Source of the DNA: a virus
Taxonomy: Duplodnaviria; Caudoviricetes
Length of the DNA stretch: 25,101 bases
Direction: 5' to 3' (one strand)
IMG/VR virus record: IMGVR_UViG_3300020045_003959
Span: 1-25,101 of that record
Part shown: positions 4,308-23,972 of the stretch, piece by piece
How positions within the stretch are numbered: the stretch's first letter is position 1
Layout: every line of letters begins with the position of its first letter
Notes under the pieces: generated by a model
What the model saw: the letters and a program-made list of their open reading frames with translations, nothing else
Databases searched by the model: none
Told to the model about the DNA's origin: nothing
Made by a program: the position numbers and the translations under genes

Positions 4308-4928
4308 TCAGACAGGATTCCAAGGGTTAGCGGGCGTCCCGATGCCCTTGATCGACACGTCGTTCACTTGCTTGATGTTCACCGGGATGGCCACCGCCAG
4401 CAGGCGCGCCATGACGGCATCGGCGATTCGGGCAACGTCGGCGTCGGATATTGAGCCGGACCAAGATCCGCCAGGAGCCGCGCCACCAGCAAACACTGCA
4501 TCGTCTGTCGTTGCGGCAATAGACACTGACGCCAGTACTCCGGCTATCGTCGCGCCGCCCGAGAAAACGGCGTCGTCTGCTGTCGCGGTCACCCCCGCAT
4601 AAGCCGGTCCGACTTGCAGCCATGCTCTAACTGGCGATCCTGTTGCTACGCCGTTGACTTTTAACTGCCACTCGAACCAGTACGATCCATCCGCCGCGCC
4701 GCTGAATTCGTAGCTCGTGTCTTCGTAGGCGTGGAGCGAACCGGATGCCGGCCATGTCGTAATCGTGCCGCAAATCTCTTTGCCGGCGTCTGCCGGAAGC
4801 GACAAGCTGTTATAGGCATAACCCGGCCCATTGTCGCCAGTCGCCGGAATCAGCGAGCCAAGCACGCCAGTTTTAGGCGTCCCGAGTACCCGCTTTCCGC
4901 CAGAGGATTGATTGAGATTGCGCAGCAT
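4308..4928 (-). CDS. Putative virion structural protein (206 aa) with two TATxDDAVFxGG repeats
   Basis: TAATG overlap with the upstream gene; beta-rich composition. Confidence 0.6.
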   Translation of the reverse strand: MLRNLNQSSGGKRVLGTPKTGVLGSLIPATGDNGPGYAYNSLSLPADAGKEICGTITTWPASGSLHAYEDTSYEFSGAADGSYWFEWQLKVNGVATGSPVRAWLQVGPAYAGVTATADDAVFSGGATIAGVLASVSIAATTDDAVFAGGAAPGGSWSGSISDADVARIADAVMARLLAVAIPVNIKQVNDVSIKGIGTPANPWNPV

Positions 4929-13955: not shown

Positions 13956-14428
13956 CGCCAACCCCTCGTTGTAATCTCGCCAGTCTCTTGATCGATGAAT
14001 TCATCCATGCTCACATCAAAGACCACGCCCAACTCAGTCACAGCAAACGCCGTAACCTTCTCGATCAACGTGGCGTAGCCGCGAACGCCTAGATCCTCTG
14101 TGGACACCCGAACGGAGCGCTTTGACTTCCGGCCGGTCAAAGGATTGGTGTAGCTTTTCCGCTTCTCGCCCAGGAACGTCTTGCGAAAATGCTCTTTCCA
14201 CGTGGCCATTGAAAATACTTGATCGCCGGGCCTTGCTTGCCGCGCAATCTCCATCAGGATGTATCCGTGGTAATACTTGCGCTGCCTGTCGGTCAAGTGA
14301 TCCTCATAGGGCCGAATCTCCGCGACGTGGCGATTCCCGGCGACGAGTTCAGGCTTGATGCTCTGCCACAACTGCGCAAACTGCTGATGCGCGGTTACGG
14401 GGCTTGATAGGACGATGGCAGCTTCCAT
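13952..14428 (-). CDS. ninB: NinB (Orf)-family recombination protein
   Basis: TDRQRKYYH...WKEHF...STEDL...LIEKVTAFA..LGV pattern and position upstream of a DUF968-like gene. Confidence 0.65.
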   Translation of the reverse strand: MEAAIVLSSPVTAHQQFAQLWQSIKPELVAGNRHVAEIRPYEDHLTDRQRKYYHGYILMEIARQARPGDQVFSMATWKEHFRKTFLGEKRKSYTNPLTGRKSKRSVRVSTEDLGVRGYATLIEKVTAFAVTELGVVFDVSMDEFIDQETGEITTRGWR

Positions 14429-15336
14429 TAATTACCCACCTCCGAGCAATCTCCATGCTGTCGCGGCTTGGAGCGGCACTTGTGCGTTTCCGTAGCCTTT
14501 AAGCTGGCCCACCCGATTGGGAATCCCATGAGCCACGCGGTCCAATTCGGGCTCAACGGTCCACCAGCTTGAGCAGCTAACGTCGGTGTATTCCGTTCGG
14601 ATTCGCTCTTGGCGTTGCACTCCTTGGCGTTGTGCGCCGTAGGCGTCGGCCACATCTTCACCGCTGAAACCAGCCCAGGCGTCCGTCTGTTCCGCTCTGA
14701 AGGACAATCTCCGCGCTGTGACGCACTTGGAGTAGGCCACAGAGCTCGCTTCGCCATCAACGCCAAAGTCGGGCGATGGTTCGAGCTTCCAATTGACGTA
14801 TTGAACCTGCCCGATCCCGCGTCGATTGAAACCGGAGTTGGCAAGTAAGAACCACCTGTCTCTGTGATGCGGCGCTCCGACATCGGATGCGCGAATGCAG
14901 AGCCACCGGCAGTCATACCCCATCTCGGCCAAGTCTGCGAGAACGGTTCCGAGTCCGTTAGAAAGGATTGCTGCAACGTTTTCCAAGAACAGGAAGCGTG
15001 GTTGAACGATGCCAGCAATGCGCAGGACTTCACGGTAAAGACCTGATCGGGTTCCCTTAGATACGCCTGCTTGCTTTCCAGCGACGCTAATGTCTTGGCA
15101 AGGGAATCCCGCATGAATGCAATCCACGCGGCCGGCGTACTCGGATGGATCGAACAGCCGGACGTCGCCTTCCCACACGTGCAATCCAGGGAACCATCCG
15201 TCAGCGGCTCGTTGGCGCAAGACTGCACAGGCGTATTTATCCCACTCAACAGCGACAATTGGATCATGTCCGAGAATGAGGTCGGCAAGTAGTCCACCGC
15301 CGATTCCTGCAAAGAGGTGCATGGTGCGCATATCAT
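14428..15336 (-). CDS. Overlapping alternative-frame ORF: putative C5-methyltransferase beta polypeptide (motif IX/TRD)
   Basis: 302 open codons over the MTase gene; GPLSPNWTAWLMGFPIGW resembles motif IX; LPTP/WPTP/WPTP repeats; ATGA overlap with the upstream stop and TAATG overlap with the ninB start. Confidence 0.7.
   Translation of the reverse strand: MICAPCTSLQESAVDYLPTSFSDMIQLSLLSGINTPVQSCANEPLTDGSLDCTCGKATSGCSIHPSTPAAWIAFMRDSLAKTLASLESKQAYLREPDQVFTVKSCALLASFNHASCSWKTLQQSFLTDSEPFSQTWPRWGMTAGGSAFAHPMSERRITETGGSYLPTPVSIDAGSGRFNTSIGSSNHRPTLALMAKRALWPTPSASQRGDCPSERNRRTPGLVSAVKMWPTPTAHNAKECNAKSESERNTPTLAAQAGGPLSPNWTAWLMGFPIGWASLKATETHKCRSKPRQHGDCSEVGN
14432..15331 (-). CDS. DNA (cytosine-5) methyltransferase, catalytic (alpha) polypeptide, 299 aa
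   Basis: Motifs I LFAGIGG, IV GFPCQ, VI LENV, VIII HRDRWF, X YGNAQVP; no motif IX visible in this frame. Confidence 0.9.
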   Translation of the reverse strand: MRTMHLFAGIGGGLLADLILGHDPIVAVEWDKYACAVLRQRAADGWFPGLHVWEGDVRLFDPSEYAGRVDCIHAGFPCQDISVAGKQAGVSKGTRSGLYREVLRIAGIVQPRFLFLENVAAILSNGLGTVLADLAEMGYDCRWLCIRASDVGAPHHRDRWFLLANSGFNRRGIGQVQYVNWKLEPSPDFGVDGEASSVAYSKCVTARRLSFRAEQTDAWAGFSGEDVADAYGAQRQGVQRQERIRTEYTDVSCSSWWTVEPELDRVAHGIPNRVGQLKGYGNAQVPLQAATAWRLLGGG

Positions 15337-15617
15337 CCCGCCTTCCCTTCTCTCGCTCGCCGTTTAAACCACTCGTTTCTGACTGATTCGCGCAACTCGT
15401 TAGCCGCCTTTGCTCCGCGCATCTTCTCCACTCGATCCATATACCCGGCGCGGCTGGCTTGCGGCATGTCCAGCACCGTGCGAATTTCACAGGATCTGCG
15501 GTAGGTTTCAGATTCGAGCATCCCGCGCTGTTCGGCTTCTTCCCGAGTAAGCATCCCGTCGAATTCGCAGATAGCTGCGCGTTCTTCGCGGATTTCTTTA
15601 CAGATGGTTTCGGTCAT
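15333..15617 (-). CDS. Hypothetical phage protein (ERAAICEFDG motif)
   Basis: EERAAICEFDGMLTREEAE motif seen in phage replication-region proteins; ATGA coupling. Confidence 0.7.
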   Translation of the reverse strand: MTETICKEIREERAAICEFDGMLTREEAEQRGMLESETYRRSCEIRTVLDMPQASRAGYMDRVEKMRGAKAANELRESVRNEWFKRRAREGKAG

Positions 15618-16300
15618 AGCGCAAGCCCGATCTGCTCTTGCTTGATTGATGGCGCAAATAACGACTCTTGGCGCTGTGCGTTCTCGATGCGCTGGCAGGC
15701 TGCCGAGAAGTAGTCGGCGTCTAACTCACAACCAACGAACTTGAAGCCGAGATTGTTTGCAGCGATTGCGCTTGATCCGCTGCCGAGGTGAGTGTCAATC
15801 ACAGACTGCCCACCCTCGCAATAGTTGGTCAGCAGCCACTCATAAAGCTCGACCGGCTTTTGTGATATGTGGATCTTCTTCTCTGCCGACGATGCCCCTG
15901 CTAGGCTTCCGTAATACCGAAACGGGAAACATTTAGCAGGGCGCTTAAACGACGTCCACGCCAGTTCTCCGTCTGAAAAGTTGTCGACCGGGTTTTGTTT
16001 GTACCAAAATATAAATCCTTGAGTCGGCGGCAATGGAAAGTAGTTTCCTCCCCAAATAATCTGATTCTTGCTAACCCTTTCAAGCTCTGAAAAATAAGCA
16101 GCGTCGGGAATGCTCTCATCCCATTTGCGCGGTACGTTATGAGCAAATCGTCCGTCCTTACGCGGCCTTTCCTTCGCCATATTCAAACCATACGGAGGAT
16201 CGACAATCGCCAAGTCGAACGCCTTGTCATCAAGGCCGCGCATGTAGTCCATGCAATCACCGCAGTACAAAGTCGCATTTCCAATGATTACCGGAGTCAT
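15614..16300 (-). CDS. DNA N6-adenine/N4-cytosine methyltransferase (beta class), 228 aa
   Basis: LYCGDCM, catalytic DPPY, H.SQKPVEL, SAM-binding DTHLGSGSS, GCELD; start re-called to ATG at 16300 (ATGA overlap). Confidence 0.9.
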   Translation of the reverse strand: MTPVIIGNATLYCGDCMDYMRGLDDKAFDLAIVDPPYGLNMAKERPRKDGRFAHNVPRKWDESIPDAAYFSELERVSKNQIIWGGNYFPLPPTQGFIFWYKQNPVDNFSDGELAWTSFKRPAKCFPFRYYGSLAGASSAEKKIHISQKPVELYEWLLTNYCEGGQSVIDTHLGSGSSAIAANNLGFKFVGCELDADYFSAACQRIENAQRQESLFAPSIKQEQIGLAL

Positions 16301-16968
16301 GCCGCGCGCTCCTGCTTCAGCACAGAAAGCAGCTTCCCGACGTTCGCGCGGAACTCCGGGTCTTTCGGCATTGGCGCCACGGTCCCGGTAAGCAGACCGG
16401 CGATAACATTCCCGCGCGCATGGTCTTCGCTTGTCATTGGCGCCGGGAGATACGCGGCCGCTTGCGATCTGGTCAGCAGCCCTTTTGACTCGGCCGCCTG
16501 GATTGCATCTGCGCGTAGCATTGGATCGTGCCCGAGTGACGGATACCATTTCGGTTTGATACCAGTTATCCGGTTTTTCCGGATAACTCGCTCGTAAGCA
16601 TCGCGAAACGCCATTCGAGCGCCTATGTCGTCGCCGGAATTCATTACCGGGCGCGCTGCTGCCATAGCCTCGTTGATCTCTTCGTTTAGGATGACTGTTG
16701 CCGCTTCATCGAAAGCCGACAGCGCGATTCCCCAGGCTTCGTTTGCTCCCGGCCTTCCGTCCGCCTGCTCGATGCGCTCAACGACTGCGGCTTGCGTCAG
16801 CCGGCCAGGAAGTTCGCGCCGGCAGCGGGTCAGCGCGGCCATAATCGCCGGTTCTGAATGTTCGCCGGCCAGGTCGGACGCCATCGCCTTCATTGCGTCG
16901 GCAGAAAGCTGCGTTCCAGTCAGTTCGGCAGTGACAGCGATTGCCTTTACCACGTCGGATATGCTCAT
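16297..16968 (-). CDS. Putative replication accessory protein (lambda P position; helicase-loader-like)
   Basis: Directly downstream of the initiator with ATGA overlap; helical, with RPGANEAW motif; function by synteny only. Confidence 0.55.
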   Translation of the reverse strand: MSISDVVKAIAVTAELTGTQLSADAMKAMASDLAGEHSEPAIMAALTRCRRELPGRLTQAAVVERIEQADGRPGANEAWGIALSAFDEAATVILNEEINEAMAAARPVMNSGDDIGARMAFRDAYERVIRKNRITGIKPKWYPSLGHDPMLRADAIQAAESKGLLTRSQAAAYLPAPMTSEDHARGNVIAGLLTGTVAPMPKDPEFRANVGKLLSVLKQERAA

Positions 16969-17846
16969 GCTGCTGCCTCCGCTTCAAGCATTCGAATCGC
17001 TTCGTTTGCGGCGTTGAAATTCGATTGGGTACGGTCAGACTGTTGGGCGGATGTGGCCGTGACCATCCGCCCGGTTTGCCACTCCATGCGCAGCTTTTCG
17101 GCATCAGCAAGCAGTGATCCGGTGTCGTGGCATTTTTTGACGTAGTAGGCATTGGCATGGCAGACGAAGAAAGCGGCTACGCTGGGCGATTCATCGAATC
17201 CAAGCCGCTGCACGAACTGCTTTATCTGCCCGTTGATCTTCGCGTTTCTTACCGGCTTCGTTCCGTAGCGTGTGGCGTAAGCATCGGAGTACGCATCCCA
17301 TGTTTCCCTGCAAGCGGTTTGCAGAGCGGTTTCGGGGTCGGGTTGATTTTCGGGGTCGGTCGGCTTGCCGGCCGGTAACGCTCCATTCCTTTCCCCTTCC
17401 CCTTCCTCTTCCTTTCCTATTCCCTTCCTCTTCCCTTCCTGGGATTTTGGTATTTCCCCAACGCTTCCCCGTTGCTTCCCTTGTGCTTCACAGTTGTTTT
17501 CTTCAGGAGCTGGGAATTTTTCTCCTTCTGTTGCTTCTTTCCCCGATAGTCTCTGATGCTTCTCGAACGTCGGGACTTCGCCGTACTCTTTCCCTGCCAC
17601 TGTGTAGCGCTTAAGCATCCCGGCTGACTCGAGAATGGCAAGCGTTGCGGCCATATCGAACGGAAGAAACGGAAGAATATCGAGCTTCAGCATGCGTGGC
17701 TTCCACTCGAAGCGGCCCTTGTTGTCGCAGTGGCCCCAAAGACCTTCAAATACCATCATCGGGTAGGCGCCAGGGTGCGCGATTTCTAAATCCTGAAGGA
17801 TTTCATGTCGGAAGAAATCAGGCTTAACCGTGCGTATGCGTGCCAT
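16965..17846 (-). CDS. Phage replication initiator protein (O-like)
   Basis: MARIRTVKPDFF...GLWGHCDNKGRF...FEKHQ N-terminal domain typical of phage initiators; low-complexity central linker with DNA repeats. Confidence 0.8.
   Translation of the reverse strand: MARIRTVKPDFFRHEILQDLEIAHPGAYPMMVFEGLWGHCDNKGRFEWKPRMLKLDILPFLPFDMAATLAILESAGMLKRYTVAGKEYGEVPTFEKHQRLSGKEATEGEKFPAPEENNCEAQGKQRGSVGEIPKSQEGKRKGIGKEEEGEGERNGALPAGKPTDPENQPDPETALQTACRETWDAYSDAYATRYGTKPVRNAKINGQIKQFVQRLGFDESPSVAAFFVCHANAYYVKKCHDTGSLLADAEKLRMEWQTGRMVTATSAQQSDRTQSNFNAANEAIRMLEAEAAA
17385..17495. repeat. Candidate replication origin: four imperfect 11-bp tandem iterons plus a polypyrimidine/polypurine tract
   Basis: atttccccaac gcttccccgtt gcttcccttgt gcttcacagtt at 17452-17495; near-pure C/T tract at about 17385-17440; inside the initiator gene as in lambdoid phages. 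Confidence 0.55.
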
Positions 17847-18689
17847 TTACGCCGCCTCGCAATCAATCAATGAGCCTTGTTTGATCGCTGGCCGACCCAC
17901 TTGCTTAACTGGCCGCAAGAAAGAGCCTTGGCGCTCGTTGCTGGCGATCCAGTCGCTAGCCGCGCTGAAGAAGTTCTTCTTGATTTCGAAGCCGTAACCA
18001 CGCCGGCCCATGTTGTGCGCAGCGATCAGCGTTGAACCGCTTCCAGCGCAAGGGTCGATCACCACATCGCCTTCATCCGTGAAGATGCTGATAAGGCGCT
18101 CAAGCAGATTGACGGGCTTTTGTGTCGGGTGAATCTTCGGCGACGACGTGTCTTTGTCCCACTCGATGCAGTTGAAAACCATCTTTCCGTGGTTGTTGAA
18201 CTTCGGCAGTTTGTCCCGGTACAGGATCAGGCCGTATTCGCAGTTGCCGACGACGCGCATATTTGCCTTCAGCACCTGGGCGCTGAAGTTTTTGCGGAAG
18301 ACGAGATTGATGTACTTGTTCAAGCCGTATTTCTTGGCTTCTTCGATCAACTGAAACTGTTGCTCGAACGCACAGAACACGATCATTGCCGGAGCGCGGC
18401 CCGCCTCTTTCGGCTCCTTGATCATCAAGGTCGAGCAGAAGTGCAAGAACTCAGGAATACGGAAATCCTTGTCGGTATCAAAGAATTCTTTGCCGGCCAG
18501 TTCGCTTTCGCCGTTGGCGTTGTCGCCGCCGACATACCATGATGGATTCGATCCGTACGCGTTTATCCCGATGTTGTACGGAATGTCGGCGATCATCAAT
18601 TGCGCTCTCGGGATGTTGTAGCGTTTGAAGTTCTGAAAGTGGTCGTGATAGAGATTCACGCCCTTGACTTTTTCTGCTTGGTGCTCCAT
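17847..18689 (-). CDS. Second DNA N4/N6 methyltransferase (beta class, DIPY variant), 280 aa
   Basis: GGAGG SD before ATG at 18689; ADIPY, HPTQKPVNLL, DPCAGSGST, GFEIK. Confidence 0.9.
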   Translation of the reverse strand: MEHQAEKVKGVNLYHDHFQNFKRYNIPRAQLMIADIPYNIGINAYGSNPSWYVGGDNANGESELAGKEFFDTDKDFRIPEFLHFCSTLMIKEPKEAGRAPAMIVFCAFEQQFQLIEEAKKYGLNKYINLVFRKNFSAQVLKANMRVVGNCEYGLILYRDKLPKFNNHGKMVFNCIEWDKDTSSPKIHPTQKPVNLLERLISIFTDEGDVVIDPCAGSGSTLIAAHNMGRRGYGFEIKKNFFSAASDWIASNERQGSFLRPVKQVGRPAIKQGSLIDCEAA

Positions 18690-18732
18690 TATTTCCTCCG
18701 GTACTTCAACGCCAGCGATACGGGTGACAGCC

Positions 18733-18939
18733 CTAGCTGGCGTTTTTCTTTTCCGCGCCCGTCGCGGATGCCGTATTGCAATCAGTGCATACCCACCCGC
18801 CGCCAACCGCTTTTCTCCGGCCAGCGAACTGATACCGAACCGTCTTGCACGTCCGGCACAGGAAAGATGGTGTTGCTGCGCACGCGGGCTTGGCGTCCCT
18901 GAAGCGTGCGATCTGGCGGGGATGGGTTTCGAAGGTCAT
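18733..18939 (-). CDS. Small C4 zinc-ribbon protein (68 aa)
   Basis: CRTC...WVCTDC; TAATG coupling to the upstream ORF. Confidence 0.55.
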   Translation of the reverse strand: MTFETHPRQIARFRDAKPACAATPSFLCRTCKTVRYQFAGRRKAVGGGWVCTDCNTASATGAEKKNAS

Positions 18940-19836: not shown

Positions 19837-20019
19837 TCAGGCTGCCTTTTTTTGTGGCTTCTCGGCCTTGAGTTTGTTTTTTGTTACCACCTGAATCTGA
19901 TACTGCCGAAGTTCTGGAACATACTCGCCCCAATGGTGCGTAGCAGAAGGATCGATACCGATAGCAGCGGCAAGCGCCGTTCGGCTTCCAAAGTGGTCAA
20001 TTGCGGTTTGTGTTTTCAT
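19837..20019 (-). CDS. cro: Cro repressor (P22/N15-type)
   Basis: MKTQTAIDHFGSRTALAAAIGI..SA..HWGEYVPELRQYQIQVVT..KLKA matches the Cro family; divergent from the HTH repressor. Confidence 0.9.
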   Translation of the reverse strand: MKTQTAIDHFGSRTALAAAIGIDPSATHHWGEYVPELRQYQIQVVTKNKLKAEKPQKKAA

Positions 20020-20027
20020 AAAGGCAC

Positions 20028-20056
20028 ATTATGAGCACACTCACAACTAAAAGCAA
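20028..20056 (-). promoter_or_regulatory. PR promoter with overlapping operator OR
   Basis: TTGCTT-17 nt-CATAAT on the minus strand; palindromic operator TTATGAGCACACTCACAA at 20029-20046. Confidence 0.75.
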
Positions 20057-20102
20057 GCACAATCGTTCCCACGCTCACACCGGAGAAAGTTATGATATTT
20101 TG

Positions 20103-20501
20103 ATGAAACTTAGCTCCCAAATAACAGCGGCCAGAGAGCGCGCAGGAATGAACCAATCCGAACTAGCGCGAGCTTGCGGAGTGTCGCCTGGAGCAATAAA
20201 CAAACTAGAGGCGGGAGATACCAAAGCATTGTCTGGCGATCTTCTATTGCGTCTCAGTTTGGCGACGAACTCCGACCCGTTCGAATTTAGCGCAATCTCT
20301 AACGCAACTACGGCCGCCACGATACAGCGGCTAATCAGGGTCCGTCAGCTTTTCTCAAAGCTGCCTAAAGACAAACAGGTGAAGATGCTGCACTACCTGT
20401 CGGTAGAGGTCGCAGAGCTTGAAGCGGGCTTTAGTGAAGGACTGTTGGACGGTCGAATGCTCGACGCCTCCCAGAGTGTAAAGCCTCGCCGTGAAACTTG
20501 A
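20103..20501 (+). CDS. cI: CI-like XRE-family repressor (132 aa, no S24 peptidase domain)
   Basis: ITAARERAGMNQSELARACGVSPGAINKLEAG HTH; start re-called to ATG at 20103, 6 nt after TATGAT. Confidence 0.85.
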   Translation: MKLSSQITAARERAGMNQSELARACGVSPGAINKLEAGDTKALSGDLLLRLSLATNSDPFEFSAISNATTAATIQRLIRVRQLFSKLPKDKQVKMLHYLSVEVAELEAGFSEGLLDGRMLDASQSVKPRRET

Positions 20502-20808: not shown

Positions 20809-20832
20809 GGCCGCAATTATGCGGCTTTTTTT
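20809..20832 (+). terminator. Rho-independent terminator between cI and PL
   Basis: GCCGC-AATTAT-GCGGC followed by T7. Confidence 0.75.
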
Positions 20833-20848
20833 CGACCTTTAAAAATAA

Positions 20849-20901
20849 TTGTGAGTGTGCTCAAATTTTCGCTTGACTTACGTTGTGAGCGCACTCATAA
20901 T
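20849..20901 (+). promoter_or_regulatory. PL promoter with two operators
   Basis: TTGACT (20873-20878)-17 nt-CATAAT (20896-20901); operators TTGTGAGTGTGCTCA (20849-20863) and TTGTGAGCGCACTCATAA (20883-20900) share TGAG-N4-CTCA with OR. Confidence 0.85.
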
Positions 20902-21115
20902 CAATTCCGTCAACACCGCAACACGAACAGCAGCAAAGCAGCGCTTCGAAATCGATTCTCATGCGCCGGATGGTGATCCTCAGGATTCTCCCTTCTCCAT
21001 ACGGCAGCCGCAGAGTGAGTCATGGCACTCGGCAAAAAGTAGCGACAAGCGGACTGGCAGGCCGCTGTGAGAGGCGATTTCAAAGTGCTGTGAATTAAGT
21101 TTGTAGTGCGTAGCT

Positions 21116-21204
21116 GGGAGGGTGTAGCTCATCGGTTAGAGCGCTGAAGCCGGCCGGCTTACCCAAGGACAGAGGTAGCAAGTTCGAATCTTGCCATCCT
21201 CCCA
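21116..21204 (+). ncRNA. tRNA-like RNA or pseudo-tRNA with a non-canonical anticodon arm
   Basis: Acceptor stem GAGGGTG/CATCCTC, T8A9, D arm GCTC-ATCGGTTA-GAGC, T arm GCAAG-TTCGAAT-CTTGC; the anticodon region is 29 nt with no 5-bp stem/7-nt loop. Confidence 0.75.
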
Positions 21205-21371
21205 AGTACGCATTAGCTACGAGTGGCCGCGCCCACCACACACCAACGGGCGAGCTTTAAAACGCAGGCGGATCACGATCAAGTACGCCAAGGCCGAAAG
21301 ACACGATCAAGAGCGAGCCGCTAGTACCGGCGAAGTCAGTGAAAGCCTGACCGTGCAGCGGCCCCGACGAT

Positions 21372-21647
21372 ATGGGGCCGCGTTTCTCCCGAGGTTTCGA
21401 CGTGTCCGAACTGCTCCAACTGCTGACGCTGACGCCCTACCCGCTGCCGATGGATATGGTCCGCGTTCAGACGTTCATCGTTCCAGAAGACGCAACCGAG
21501 GATTCGTACTGCCCGCGATGCAATCTTGAATTGCCCGAATCAGCGTTCTACAAGAACCCGAAAACAGGCATCCGGCATGCTCAGTGCAAGCAGTGCGCTT
21601 ACAAGAAGTCGGCCCGATACCGGCAAAGGAAAATGAAATGCGCCTGA
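21372..21647 (+). CDS. Small C4 zinc-finger protein (start uncertain)
   Basis: CPRC..ELPESAFY......CKQC motif with a basic tail; end overlaps the next gene. Confidence 0.6.
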   Translation: MGPRFSRGFDVSELLQLLTLTPYPLPMDMVRVQTFIVPEDATEDSYCPRCNLELPESAFYKNPKTGIRHAQCKQCAYKKSARYRQRKMKCA

Positions 21648-21865: not shown

Positions 21866-21950
21866 GCCATGAGCAACGACGGCGGAATCCAGTATTACCA
21901 ACAACACCAAAGCCAGCTTGAACAACTGAATATTGAATTGGAGAACATCA

Positions 21951-22610
21951 ATGTCTATCGCTTGCATGATCTTAGGGGAAAGCGGAACGGGCAAGACCAC
22001 CAGCCTTCGCAATCTCGACCCAGCACATACGCTTCTGATCCAGTCCGTCAAGAAACCGCTGCCGTTCCGTTCTAGCGACTGGAAGCCATGCACCAAGGAA
22101 AGCGGGTCTGTGTACGTTACCGACATCAGCGCCAACATGGTCGAAGCCATGAAGCGCACCCGCAAGGAAATCATCGTTATTGACGACTTCCAATACCTGC
22201 TTGCCAACGAATTCATGCGCCGAGTCACCGACGTTGAAGTCGGAAACGCCGCATTCGCCAAATACAACGAAATTGCTCGCCACGCATGGGATGTGCTGAT
22301 GGCCGCTACATCGCTGCCCGATCACAAGCGGGTTTATCTGTTGAGCCACACGTCGACCGACGATTTTGGAAAAACGAAGATCAAGACGATTGGCAAGTTG
22401 CTGGACGAAAAGATCGTCATGGAGGGGCTTGTAACCATCGTTCTGCGGACAGTGGTGCAGAACGGAAATTACCTGTTTTCAACGCAAAACAGCGGGTCTG
22501 ACACAGTTAAGTCACCTCTCGGAATGTTCGACTCTGAACTGATCGAGAACGATATTTCTGCCGTCGATTCCACGATTTTCAACTACTACGGCTTGAAAGA
22601 AGCCGCCTAA
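21951..22610 (+). CDS. Sak4-like / AAA_24 P-loop ATPase (single-strand annealing recombinase)
   Basis: GGAGA SD; Walker A GESGTGKT, Walker B IVIDD, KTIGKLLDEK, KSPLGMF; followed by an SSB-like gene. Confidence 0.8.
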   Translation: MSIACMILGESGTGKTTSLRNLDPAHTLLIQSVKKPLPFRSSDWKPCTKESGSVYVTDISANMVEAMKRTRKEIIVIDDFQYLLANEFMRRVTDVEVGNAAFAKYNEIARHAWDVLMAATSLPDHKRVYLLSHTSTDDFGKTKIKTIGKLLDEKIVMEGLVTIVLRTVVQNGNYLFSTQNSGSDTVKSPLGMFDSELIENDISAVDSTIFNYYGLKEAA

Positions 22611-22628
22611 CTACCGGAGCTTTGAATT

Positions 22629-23267
22629 ATGGAATATCAACTGAACGTCGAAGCCGCAAAACAAGCCGACAGCATCAACAGCCGAATTGACACGAGAGGC
22701 AAGTACCCAGGGATCCTGACCCGCGCCGAGCCGATTACAAGCAGAAAAGGAAGTCAGGGTGTCGACATGTCGTTCAAGTCCAATACGGGCGCAACGGCGG
22801 ATTACCTGACCATCTGGACGCACAACGCAGACGGCAAACAGCTTCAGGGCTTCAATGCGCTGATGGCAATCATGACCTGTATGCGAGTCAAGTCTCTCAA
22901 GGCTGAAGTTGGCGAAATCGAGAAATATGACCAAGAGCAGCAGAAGCGCGTCAAGGTCAGCACGCCGATTTTCAAGGAACTGATGAACAAGCCGTTTGGC
23001 CTCGTCATCCATATGGAAGAGTACGAAAAGACGGCAGGCGGAACGGCTTGGAAGCCTGCTATCTCCGGCGTGTTCGACAAAGACGAATTCACCGCAAGCG
23101 AAATCTTGAACAAGGCGCAGAAGCCTGGAACGCTCGACAAGATGCTTGACGCGCTTCGTGATCGCCCGCTGAAGGCCGGCGCGCAGCCACCGAAACAAAC
23201 ACCAACGAGCAGCACGGCGCCATCTGGCGGCCCGTTTGCTGACATGGACGACGACATTCCTTTCTAA
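22629..23267 (+). CDS. Single-stranded DNA-binding protein (phage type)
   Basis: Acidic SSB tail DMDDDIPF; beta-rich N-terminus; adjacent to the Sak4-like ATPase. Confidence 0.75.
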   Translation: MEYQLNVEAAKQADSINSRIDTRGKYPGILTRAEPITSRKGSQGVDMSFKSNTGATADYLTIWTHNADGKQLQGFNALMAIMTCMRVKSLKAEVGEIEKYDQEQQKRVKVSTPIFKELMNKPFGLVIHMEEYEKTAGGTAWKPAISGVFDKDEFTASEILNKAQKPGTLDKMLDALRDRPLKAGAQPPKQTPTSSTAPSGGPFADMDDDIPF

Positions 23268-23279
23268 TTGGACGACAAC

Positions 23280-23972
23280 ATGAAACTCTATCTCGACATT
23301 GAAACGCTTCCTTGCTCCGATCCTGAGTTTATCGCCCAGGTAGCGGAAACAATCACCGTGCCGGCGCAGTACAAGAAGCCGGAAAGCATTGCCGAATGGC
23401 TGCGCGAGAACAAAGAACAGGCCATCAAGGATGCGGTTTCGAAAACCTCGTTCGATGGACTGTTCGGGCAGATCGCTTGCATCTGCTATGCATTCGATGA
23501 TGGCGAAATCTTCGCAGCGGACCGCAACTCGTCCGGCGATGAGAAAACCATGATCGAGCATTTCTACACGCATGTGTTTGATATGTCCGGCGTCGACCAC
23601 CACAGCGGAACAGCCTATCAGCCTATTACGGTTGTCGGCCATAACGTCGCCGGATTTGACCTGCCGTTCCTCAAGCATCGCTCAATCATTCACGGCGTTT
23701 TACCAGTTCCAGCAATTCTCAAAGCGATGGGCGCAAAGCCTTGGGAGGCTTGCATTGCAGACACGATGCTGATGTGGTCTAGCGACTCACAGAAGCGCGT
23801 CAGCATGGACAAACTGTGCAAAGCGTTCGGACTGGATGGCAAAGGCGGATTTGATGGCTCGATGGTAGCCGACACGTGGCCGCACGATCCGAAAAAGGTG
23901 ATCGAGTATTGCAAGGAAGACGTTCGCCGTACTCGCTCAATCTTCAAACGCCTGACATGGGATCAATCATGA
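23280..23972 (+). CDS. 3'-5' exonuclease, DEDD/DnaQ-like superfamily
   Basis: ExoI LDIET, ExoII GHNVAGFDLPFL, ExoIII YCKEDV. Confidence 0.85.
   Translation: MKLYLDIETLPCSDPEFIAQVAETITVPAQYKKPESIAEWLRENKEQAIKDAVSKTSFDGLFGQIACICYAFDDGEIFAADRNSSGDEKTMIEHFYTHVFDMSGVDHHSGTAYQPITVVGHNVAGFDLPFLKHRSIIHGVLPVPAILKAMGAKPWEACIADTMLMWSSDSQKRVSMDKLCKAFGLDGKGGFDGSMVADTWPHDPKKVIEYCKEDVRRTRSIFKRLTWDQS

Follow-up and report, generated by a model that had tools for sequence, protein, structure and literature searches.

Phage-encoded tRNAs are thought to benefit their carriers by making up for host tRNAs lost to defence nucleases. Lambda Gam triggers OLD, a tRNA nuclease that strips tRNAs of their anticodon arms, and rescue is brought about by full-length tRNA that replaces the degraded host tRNA (PMC12445682). 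Septu cuts the variable arm of tRNA-Tyr, retron-Eco7 likewise cuts the variable arm, rescue is by full-length tRNAs, and the authors suggest that phage tRNA may serve as 'decoy or supplement' (PMC13096335). Other tRNA-shaped RNAs have been described in quite different settings. RNA1 of phage T5 (NC_005859.1 30501-30644) is annotated as a 'tRNA-like stable RNA with unknown functions', while the t-elements of plant mitochondria are processing signals with ends that match mapped RNA termini (Forner et al. 2007, PMC1920247). The largely open-access literature searched gave no account of tRNA mimics that lack an anticodon in the leaders of temperate phages.

The window analysed here is a virus record of 25,101 nucleotides (25.1 kb), a 59% complete fragment of a temperate phage, and it contains a tRNA-shaped element without a usable anticodon that is a real sequence feature. 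Like the element, T5 RNA1 combines acceptor, D and T arms of tRNA type with an extended structured arm in place of the anticodon arm, but RNA1 belongs to the tRNA cluster of a lytic phage, is 144 nt long, has a long variable arm and is predicted to fold without the long sealing helix described below. RNA1 was absent among the matches listed (30 of 127) from a search of phages, and no phage record covered 80% of the element query. Like the t-elements, it is a cloverleaf of non-canonical form that keeps a conserved T arm and lies within a long (here predicted) transcript, but its leader is predicted to pair with its 3' end, which would hinder bacterial RNase P. Like the anti-defence phage tRNAs, it presents a phage tRNA body that could meet host tRNA nucleases; unlike the full-length phage tRNAs reported to counter OLD, Septu and retron-Eco7, it cannot supplement translation.

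A tRNA body with a replaced decoding arm

The features of the element, all on the plus strand, are as follows:

21104..21117, plus strand: 5' strand of the extended acceptor helix, predicted pair probabilities 0.94-0.98, with G(-2)G(-1) at 21116-21117
21118..21201, plus strand: tRNA-shaped core, Rfam RF00005, 47 bits
21127-21142, plus strand: D arm, D stem with 4/4 pairs
21144..21172, plus strand: replaced decoding arm, 29 nt, closed by three pairs (CTG/CAG)
21147..21160, plus strand: perfect 14-nt palindrome, predicted 5-bp hairpin (probability 0.64)
21173-21177, plus strand: variable loop, AGGTA
21178-21194, plus strand: T arm, T stem with 5/5 pairs, loop TTCGAAT
21202..21220, plus strand: CCA and 3' strand of the extended helix, predicted to pair up to 21215, with an alternative pairing to 21220

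A preliminary description of this region had read it as a tRNA mimic with a canonical D arm, a T arm containing TTCGAAT, T8A9 and a 7-bp acceptor stem, and every one of these is present. The Rfam match runs from 21118 to 21201/21202 with an E value of 2.7e-7 and lies well above the family cut-off of 29 bits. All 16 acceptor, D and T pairs are intact, among them the seven of the acceptor stem (21118-21124/21195-21201), as are the elbow bases, and the Levitt positions are occupied by U15 and A48. A structural scan of 5.0 Mb of shuffled window returned no strict and two loose cores. ARAGORN called no gene at the element at default settings and gave only noise there at lowered thresholds; neither ARAGORN nor Rfam detected another tRNA in the window.

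The element thus resembles a canonical tRNA (RF00005) in its acceptor, D and T arms, T8A9, variable loop and elbow bases, and departs from it in a CCA that stands one position early and is paired, in sealed flanks and in the 29-nt arm. The CCA (21202-21204) directly follows the acceptor stem and pairs with TGG (21115-21117), as first described; positions 73-76 read CCAA rather than RCCA and are paired in the predicted fold of the precursor. Enzymatic CCA addition after trimming is possible. The replaced arm, with the CTG/CAG ends and the perfect palindrome noted at the outset, has neither U33 nor a 7-nt loop, and the fold prediction gives its closing CTG/CAG stem a pairing probability of only ~0.01. 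A palindrome of at least 14 nt arises in 0.05% of arm-interior shuffles, in a post hoc test; one further 14-mer palindrome occurs elsewhere in the window. Within the phage, the best antisense match to the arm is 10 nt long, no different from shuffles.

Predicted sealing of the acceptor helix by the flanks

The flanking sequence had also been proposed to lengthen the acceptor helix by TGG/CCA, TGCGTA/TACGCA and GTAG/CTAC. The first two are present and predicted to be paired, with a 2x2 loop between them, whereas GTAG/CTAC would need a 4-nt bulge and the outermost predicted pairing is instead TAG/TTA (21104-21106/21213-21215). Folding of the real flanks was matched or beaten by one of 1000 flank shuffles, and their pairing energy (-24.3 kcal/mol) is the strongest when set against 166 viral tRNA-type cores, the next being -20.7 kcal/mol. 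With the flanks included, the acceptor, D and T pairs are predicted at probabilities of 1.0, 0.74 and 0.98, under a model that ignores tertiary contacts and modifications. When the sequence is trimmed to the tRNA borders, acceptor pairing drops from 1.0 to 0.03-0.10, and the 5' strand of the acceptor is predicted to pair with the 3' side of the swollen arm; since the trimmed acceptor stem is also broken in 18% of arm shuffles, this effect is not special and is taken as a hint only.

The element lies in a predicted early transcript

The surroundings of the element comprise the following features:

19837-20019: cro-like gene, divergent from the cI-like gene (context)
20031..20501, plus strand: cI-like repressor gene, PHROG transcriptional repressor, E 1e-9
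20849-20863 and 20883-20897: two operator-like repeats, related to a site between cro and cI
20873..20901, plus strand: predicted PL-type sigma-70 promoter, TTGACT-17-CATAAT, 10/12 consensus matches
20939..21090, plus strand: module A, structured non-coding element with a long closing helix, z -3.0, no Rfam match
21222..21394, plus strand: module B, conserved non-coding sequence before the first PL-operon genes
21933..23972, plus strand: Sak4 annealase, SSB and exonuclease genes (PHROG matches), in the same operon downstream of the element

The gene order of the window is lambdoid, with packaging and replication genes on the minus strand; three DNA methyltransferase genes lie in the replication region (14428-18806). 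The cI-like gene has hardly any relatives in sequence searches. The promoter at 20873-20901, which overlaps one of the two operator-like repeats, is predicted to be PL; a terminator-like site (20809-20826) lies just 5' of it, terminator prediction lists none between it and the element, and ~470 nt without a recognised gene follow it. The location in a PL leader that had been proposed for the element agrees with this promoter and its operators, but not the claim that the RNA is made immediately from PL: the element starts 217 nt after the -10 box, ~210 nt from the promoter, behind the 150-nt structured module A. Best matches of the Sak4 annealase among 56 GTDB loci are from Burkholderiales (78-80% identical), which makes a betaproteobacterial host likely. 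Within the 25.1-kb fragment no Gam-like gene was identified, and PHROGs named no N- or Q-like gene.

The closest complete phage (genome G002, locus L001) matches the window in nine DNA blocks of 74-92% identity, seven of them at 80-92%. It keeps modules A and B and has no Rfam tRNA. Module A, a multibranched predicted RNA that is common in wastewater contigs, is 74% identical there, with seven double-sided and five one-sided pair changes; its pattern was found in the contig of L001 alone among viral contigs and nowhere in GTDB. As PHROGs named no N- or Q-like gene, module A may be an RNA antiterminator of a put-like kind, as in the put RNAs of HK022. Module B is 81% identical in L001 over 21261-21394 and folds no better than shuffles; a 10-mer is repeated within it (21274, 21302), and its final GC-rich hairpin has the highest summed contig depth in the wastewater runs. 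Neither module has a second copy in the window or in G002, and Rfam gave nothing over cut-off for module A, module B or the stretch between them in L001.

That stretch (L001 2690-2825) is occupied by a strongly folded hairpin RNA (z -6.15) whose closing helix spans 15 bp and which is unrelated to tRNA, and BLAST detected no similarity between it and the element (two short matches were seen by eye). In wastewater run X1 a contig joins 21087 to 21252 with 38 other letters, and contigs of runs X4 and X6 join 21091 to 21295, skipping the element; pieces of module B from 21222 onward occur in X1 and X4. One low-depth contig of X1 aligns to 21108-21148 and then again from 21222, with intervening sequence; it may represent another slot allele, or an error. 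Contig cover is absent over 21165-21221 in four wastewater runs, an observation about contigs that has no bearing on expression. Since relatives and wastewater contigs replace or skip the element between modules A and B, the slot is, on these alignments, accessory. No normal tRNA was seen in it among the relatives. By the same token, the conservation of the element is weak, because the closest phage does without it altogether.

Core relatives and a wider class of expanded-arm look-alikes

Exact or near-exact copies of the element were found neither in IMG/VR nor in JGI metagenomes, cultured phages or plasmids, and 401 Burkholderiales genomes gave only two short matches, one attributable to chance and the other consisting of 25 nt in module B. 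As no full-length close homologue turned up in these collections, ongoing selection on this copy is unsupported. A metagenome search with the T arm returned four matches, three of which are canonical tRNA-Arg(UCG) genes of cellular contigs with the same T arm and variable loop. The fourth (L223 536-599), a 3' fragment without a D arm that resembles the arm and T arm of the element (80% over 65 nt), may reflect chance or a decayed relative.

The best score among 70 tRNA-like cores belongs to L145/L286, which is 79% identical to the core of the window over 71 columns. L286, whose 22-nt arm is non-decoding, has in common with the element its D arm, U15/A48, both ends of the decoding arm and almost all of the T arm. 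Each of the two sequences keeps all 19 pairs, five acceptor pairs with double-sided changes, although a comparison of two sequences is thin evidence, and the homology covers ~70 nt, comes from a set enriched for tRNA cores and leaves the acceptor stems with little sequence in common. L286 lies upstream of terminase genes, behind a putative late promoter, read by eye.

Among 80 viral Sak4 loci, one (L044, from another lambdoid phage whose Sak4 is 72% identical) carries odd-armed look-alikes upstream in the PL operon; none of the 56 GTDB loci has one near Sak4. The two look-alikes of L044 stand in tandem (4440-4640), and the acceptor helix of the first, predicted to reach 19 pairs (z -5.6), runs into the acceptor strand of the second. 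Because of this overlap the two folds may be mutually exclusive.

A pattern for tRNA cores with an arm of at least 21 nt, searched in 8 of the 64 parts of IMG/VR, gave 121 loci, or an estimated ~1000 in all. Under simple rules that misfile a few, 43 of the 118 distinct arms count as expanded, 34 as intron-like, 12 as class II-like and 29 as other. Viral loci with a Y15/A48 core number 40, of which 31 have 17-nt arms and nine are expanded. Six of the 401 Burkholderiales genomes matched the pattern, and inspection left two true expansions. Encoded CCA is present in 9/46 expanded look-alikes against 31/45 canonical tRNAs; on a smaller set obtained with a different pattern the difference is not significant (4/13 versus 14/21, p 0.08). 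At least three contiguous pairs extend the acceptor in 4/46 expanded look-alikes and in 0/45 canonical viral tRNAs, but mean flank-pairing energy does not differ between the two (-5.8 versus -5.3 kcal/mol), so the seal is not a trait of the class. A paired CNG, the OLD target motif, is not enriched (5/13 expanded versus 12/21); the element has one, a single pair off register.

A decoy or ligand as the tentatively preferred reading

Our preferred reading, held tentatively and modelled on the predicted folds, is that the element forms part of an early RNA cassette and serves as a tRNA-shaped decoy or ligand, sealed at its ends and unable to decode. It would be transcribed early from the predicted PL, on induction or infection; the extended acceptor helix would keep it sealed, the top half of the cloverleaf forming only while the flanking helix is present; host RNase P would be expected to handle it poorly; and it could then decoy or bind host proteins that grip the top half of tRNA, such as tRNA-targeting defence enzymes. 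The combination of sealed ends and an intact elbow would suit a surface for binding, not cleavage, and the early position, ahead of the recombination module and in an accessory slot, fits defence evasion (compare the activation of OLD by Gam, PMC12445682). A decoy role is plausible.

Several observations argue for this reading. The acceptor, D and T pairs and the elbow are intact while the decoding arm is not, the arm cannot be traced to a single insertion, and the relative with the best-scoring core lacks a decoding arm as well. The PL operon of L044 carries a similarly sealed odd-armed look-alike, the seal of the element surpasses 999 of 1000 flank shuffles, and a paired G(-2)G(-1) slows E. 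coli RNase P (PMC9433436). Expanded arms recur in viral contigs, are rare in the 401 Burkholderiales genomes and mostly lack an encoded CCA. Against it stand the closest complete phage, G002/L001, which manages without the element, the lack of a full-length close homologue in the collections searched, the short L286 homology from a tRNA-enriched set, the CCA difference that loses significance on the smaller set, and the loss of the trimmed stem that arm shuffles show as well. The paired CNG is off register and not enriched in the class, and the fragment yielded no Gam-like gene. Moreover, OLD cuts the anticodon stem and Septu and retron-Eco7 the variable arm, regions that in the element are altered or short; the tRNAs that brought about rescue were full-length, and a remodelled arm may not mimic them (PMC12445682, PMC13096335).

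A wider proposal, which we regard as speculative and rather improbable, is that the first early transcript of temperate phages has a slot for exchangeable RNA cassettes, in which sealed anticodon-less mimics would act as RNA-only anti-defence factors and soak up tRNA-binding immune enzymes just before the triggering recombination genes are expressed. If this were true, hundreds of uncatalogued expanded-arm look-alikes in viromes would join an anti-defence class. Such elements are missed by ARAGORN and liable to be dismissed as pseudogenes. With a tRNA body unable to decode, the 'decoy' idea can be tested directly and apart from the 'supplement' idea. This copy by itself is weak evidence, because the closest phage lacks it; it is of value as a clean case in which the acceptor helix is sealed and the slot has a natural allele holding a different RNA.

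Competing explanations

The strongest competitor, though somewhat unlikely, is that a captured phage tRNA gene recently lost its decoding arm through slippage-type duplication and point changes and now persists as a neutral pseudogene in the leader. The absence of the element from the closest phage and its omission from contigs in X1, X4 and X6 would agree with such decay, as would a tandem CCGG repeat within the arm and the canonical tRNA-Arg(UCG) genes that share its T arm and variable loop (three of the four metagenome matches); a recent break would also leave the other stems intact. The best 12-nt omission, that of 21147-21158, gives five stem pairs enclosing a CCA triplet; the resulting loop, however, has A32-C33 instead of Y32-U33, and 33% of shuffles reach five pairs equally well. 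None of the 18 contiguous 12-nt omissions restores a canonical loop (a stem of at least four pairs with Y32-U33-R37), either in the element or in the arm of L286 (0/18 each), so the element is neither an intron-bearing tRNA nor a normal tRNA changed by one insertion. The searches brought up no canonical parent, the closest relative of the core cannot decode either, and a flanking helix of this strength is unusual, given that none of the 45 canonical viral tRNAs extends its acceptor by three contiguous pairs or more. With no canonical loop recoverable and a non-decoding relative, the non-decoding shape put forward in the preliminary description is supported.

Unlikely, too, is a cis-acting processing or stability element, a bacterial counterpart of the t-element at which RNase P or a double-strand RNase would cut the PL transcript, shaping the message or freeing neighbouring RNA modules. 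The PL leader of lambda carries an RNase III site, and long helices close both known slot occupants as well as module A; an elbow, however, is unnecessary for an RNase III role. For RNase P, the elbow and the 12-bp acceptor/T stack that the enzyme measures are intact (PMC9433436), and t-elements serve this purpose in plant mitochondria (PMC1920247). On the other side, the free leader and RCCA, both RNase P determinants, are missing: G(-2)G(-1) is predicted to pair with the 3' end, the helix continuing for another 6-9 pairs, and CCAA takes the place of RCCA. For the E. coli enzyme, GG is the slowest leader dinucleotide, and pairing of G(-2)G(-1) to the 3' end lowers kcat/Km 13-fold while Kd changes only twofold, although the enzyme is able to unwind short leader pairing (PMC9433436). 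These known anti-determinants weaken the RNase P processing signal that had been suggested for the element.

Highly improbable is a role in which the palindrome dimerises the RNA, through a kissing loop and then a duplex, with the dimer as the working form. The predicted self-duplex (-29.1 kcal/mol) is far more stable than the hairpin (-5.1 kcal/mol). Among the nine expanded Y15/A48 elements, inspected by eye and post hoc, L308 (2494-2575) has its own perfect 14-nt palindrome in its expanded arm, and L312, L296/L304, L286 and L281 have palindromes of 6-8 nt. Any hairpin with a self-complementary 4-nt loop, however, is a full palindrome, and the nearest relative, L286, has a 6-mer only. Dimerisation, which had been raised as an option in the preliminary description, is unsupported because palindromes are not enriched in the wider class (at least 6 nt, 11/41 arms versus 12.4 expected; at least 8 nt, 3 versus 3.3).

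Close to refuted is the reading that the element is left over from an attachment site, or is a tRNA whose short intron is spliced out: integration does leave tRNA fragments in genomes (bioRxiv 10.1101/2022.07.05.498093) and 34/118 long arms in viral contigs look intron-bearing, but both tRNA halves are present and paired here, no repeat of the 3' half of at least 12 nt occurs elsewhere in the 59% complete fragment, the integrase of G002 lies ~6.6 kb from the slot, and no 12-nt removal gives a canonical loop.

Other arms met in the survey deserve brief mention. Two related look-alikes, L087 and L090 (~1501-1562), have 40-nt arms whose closing stems differ yet remain paired, which suggests a conserved family. 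In L131, L136, L146, L149, L175, L207, L105 and L338, phage tRNAs have an anticodon of UAU or related type together with a variable arm that is long and class II-like. Finally, in the cellular contig L222 (~2215-2370), a complete tRNA-Arg lies in an insertion bounded by inverted repeats within the arm region of another tRNA gene.
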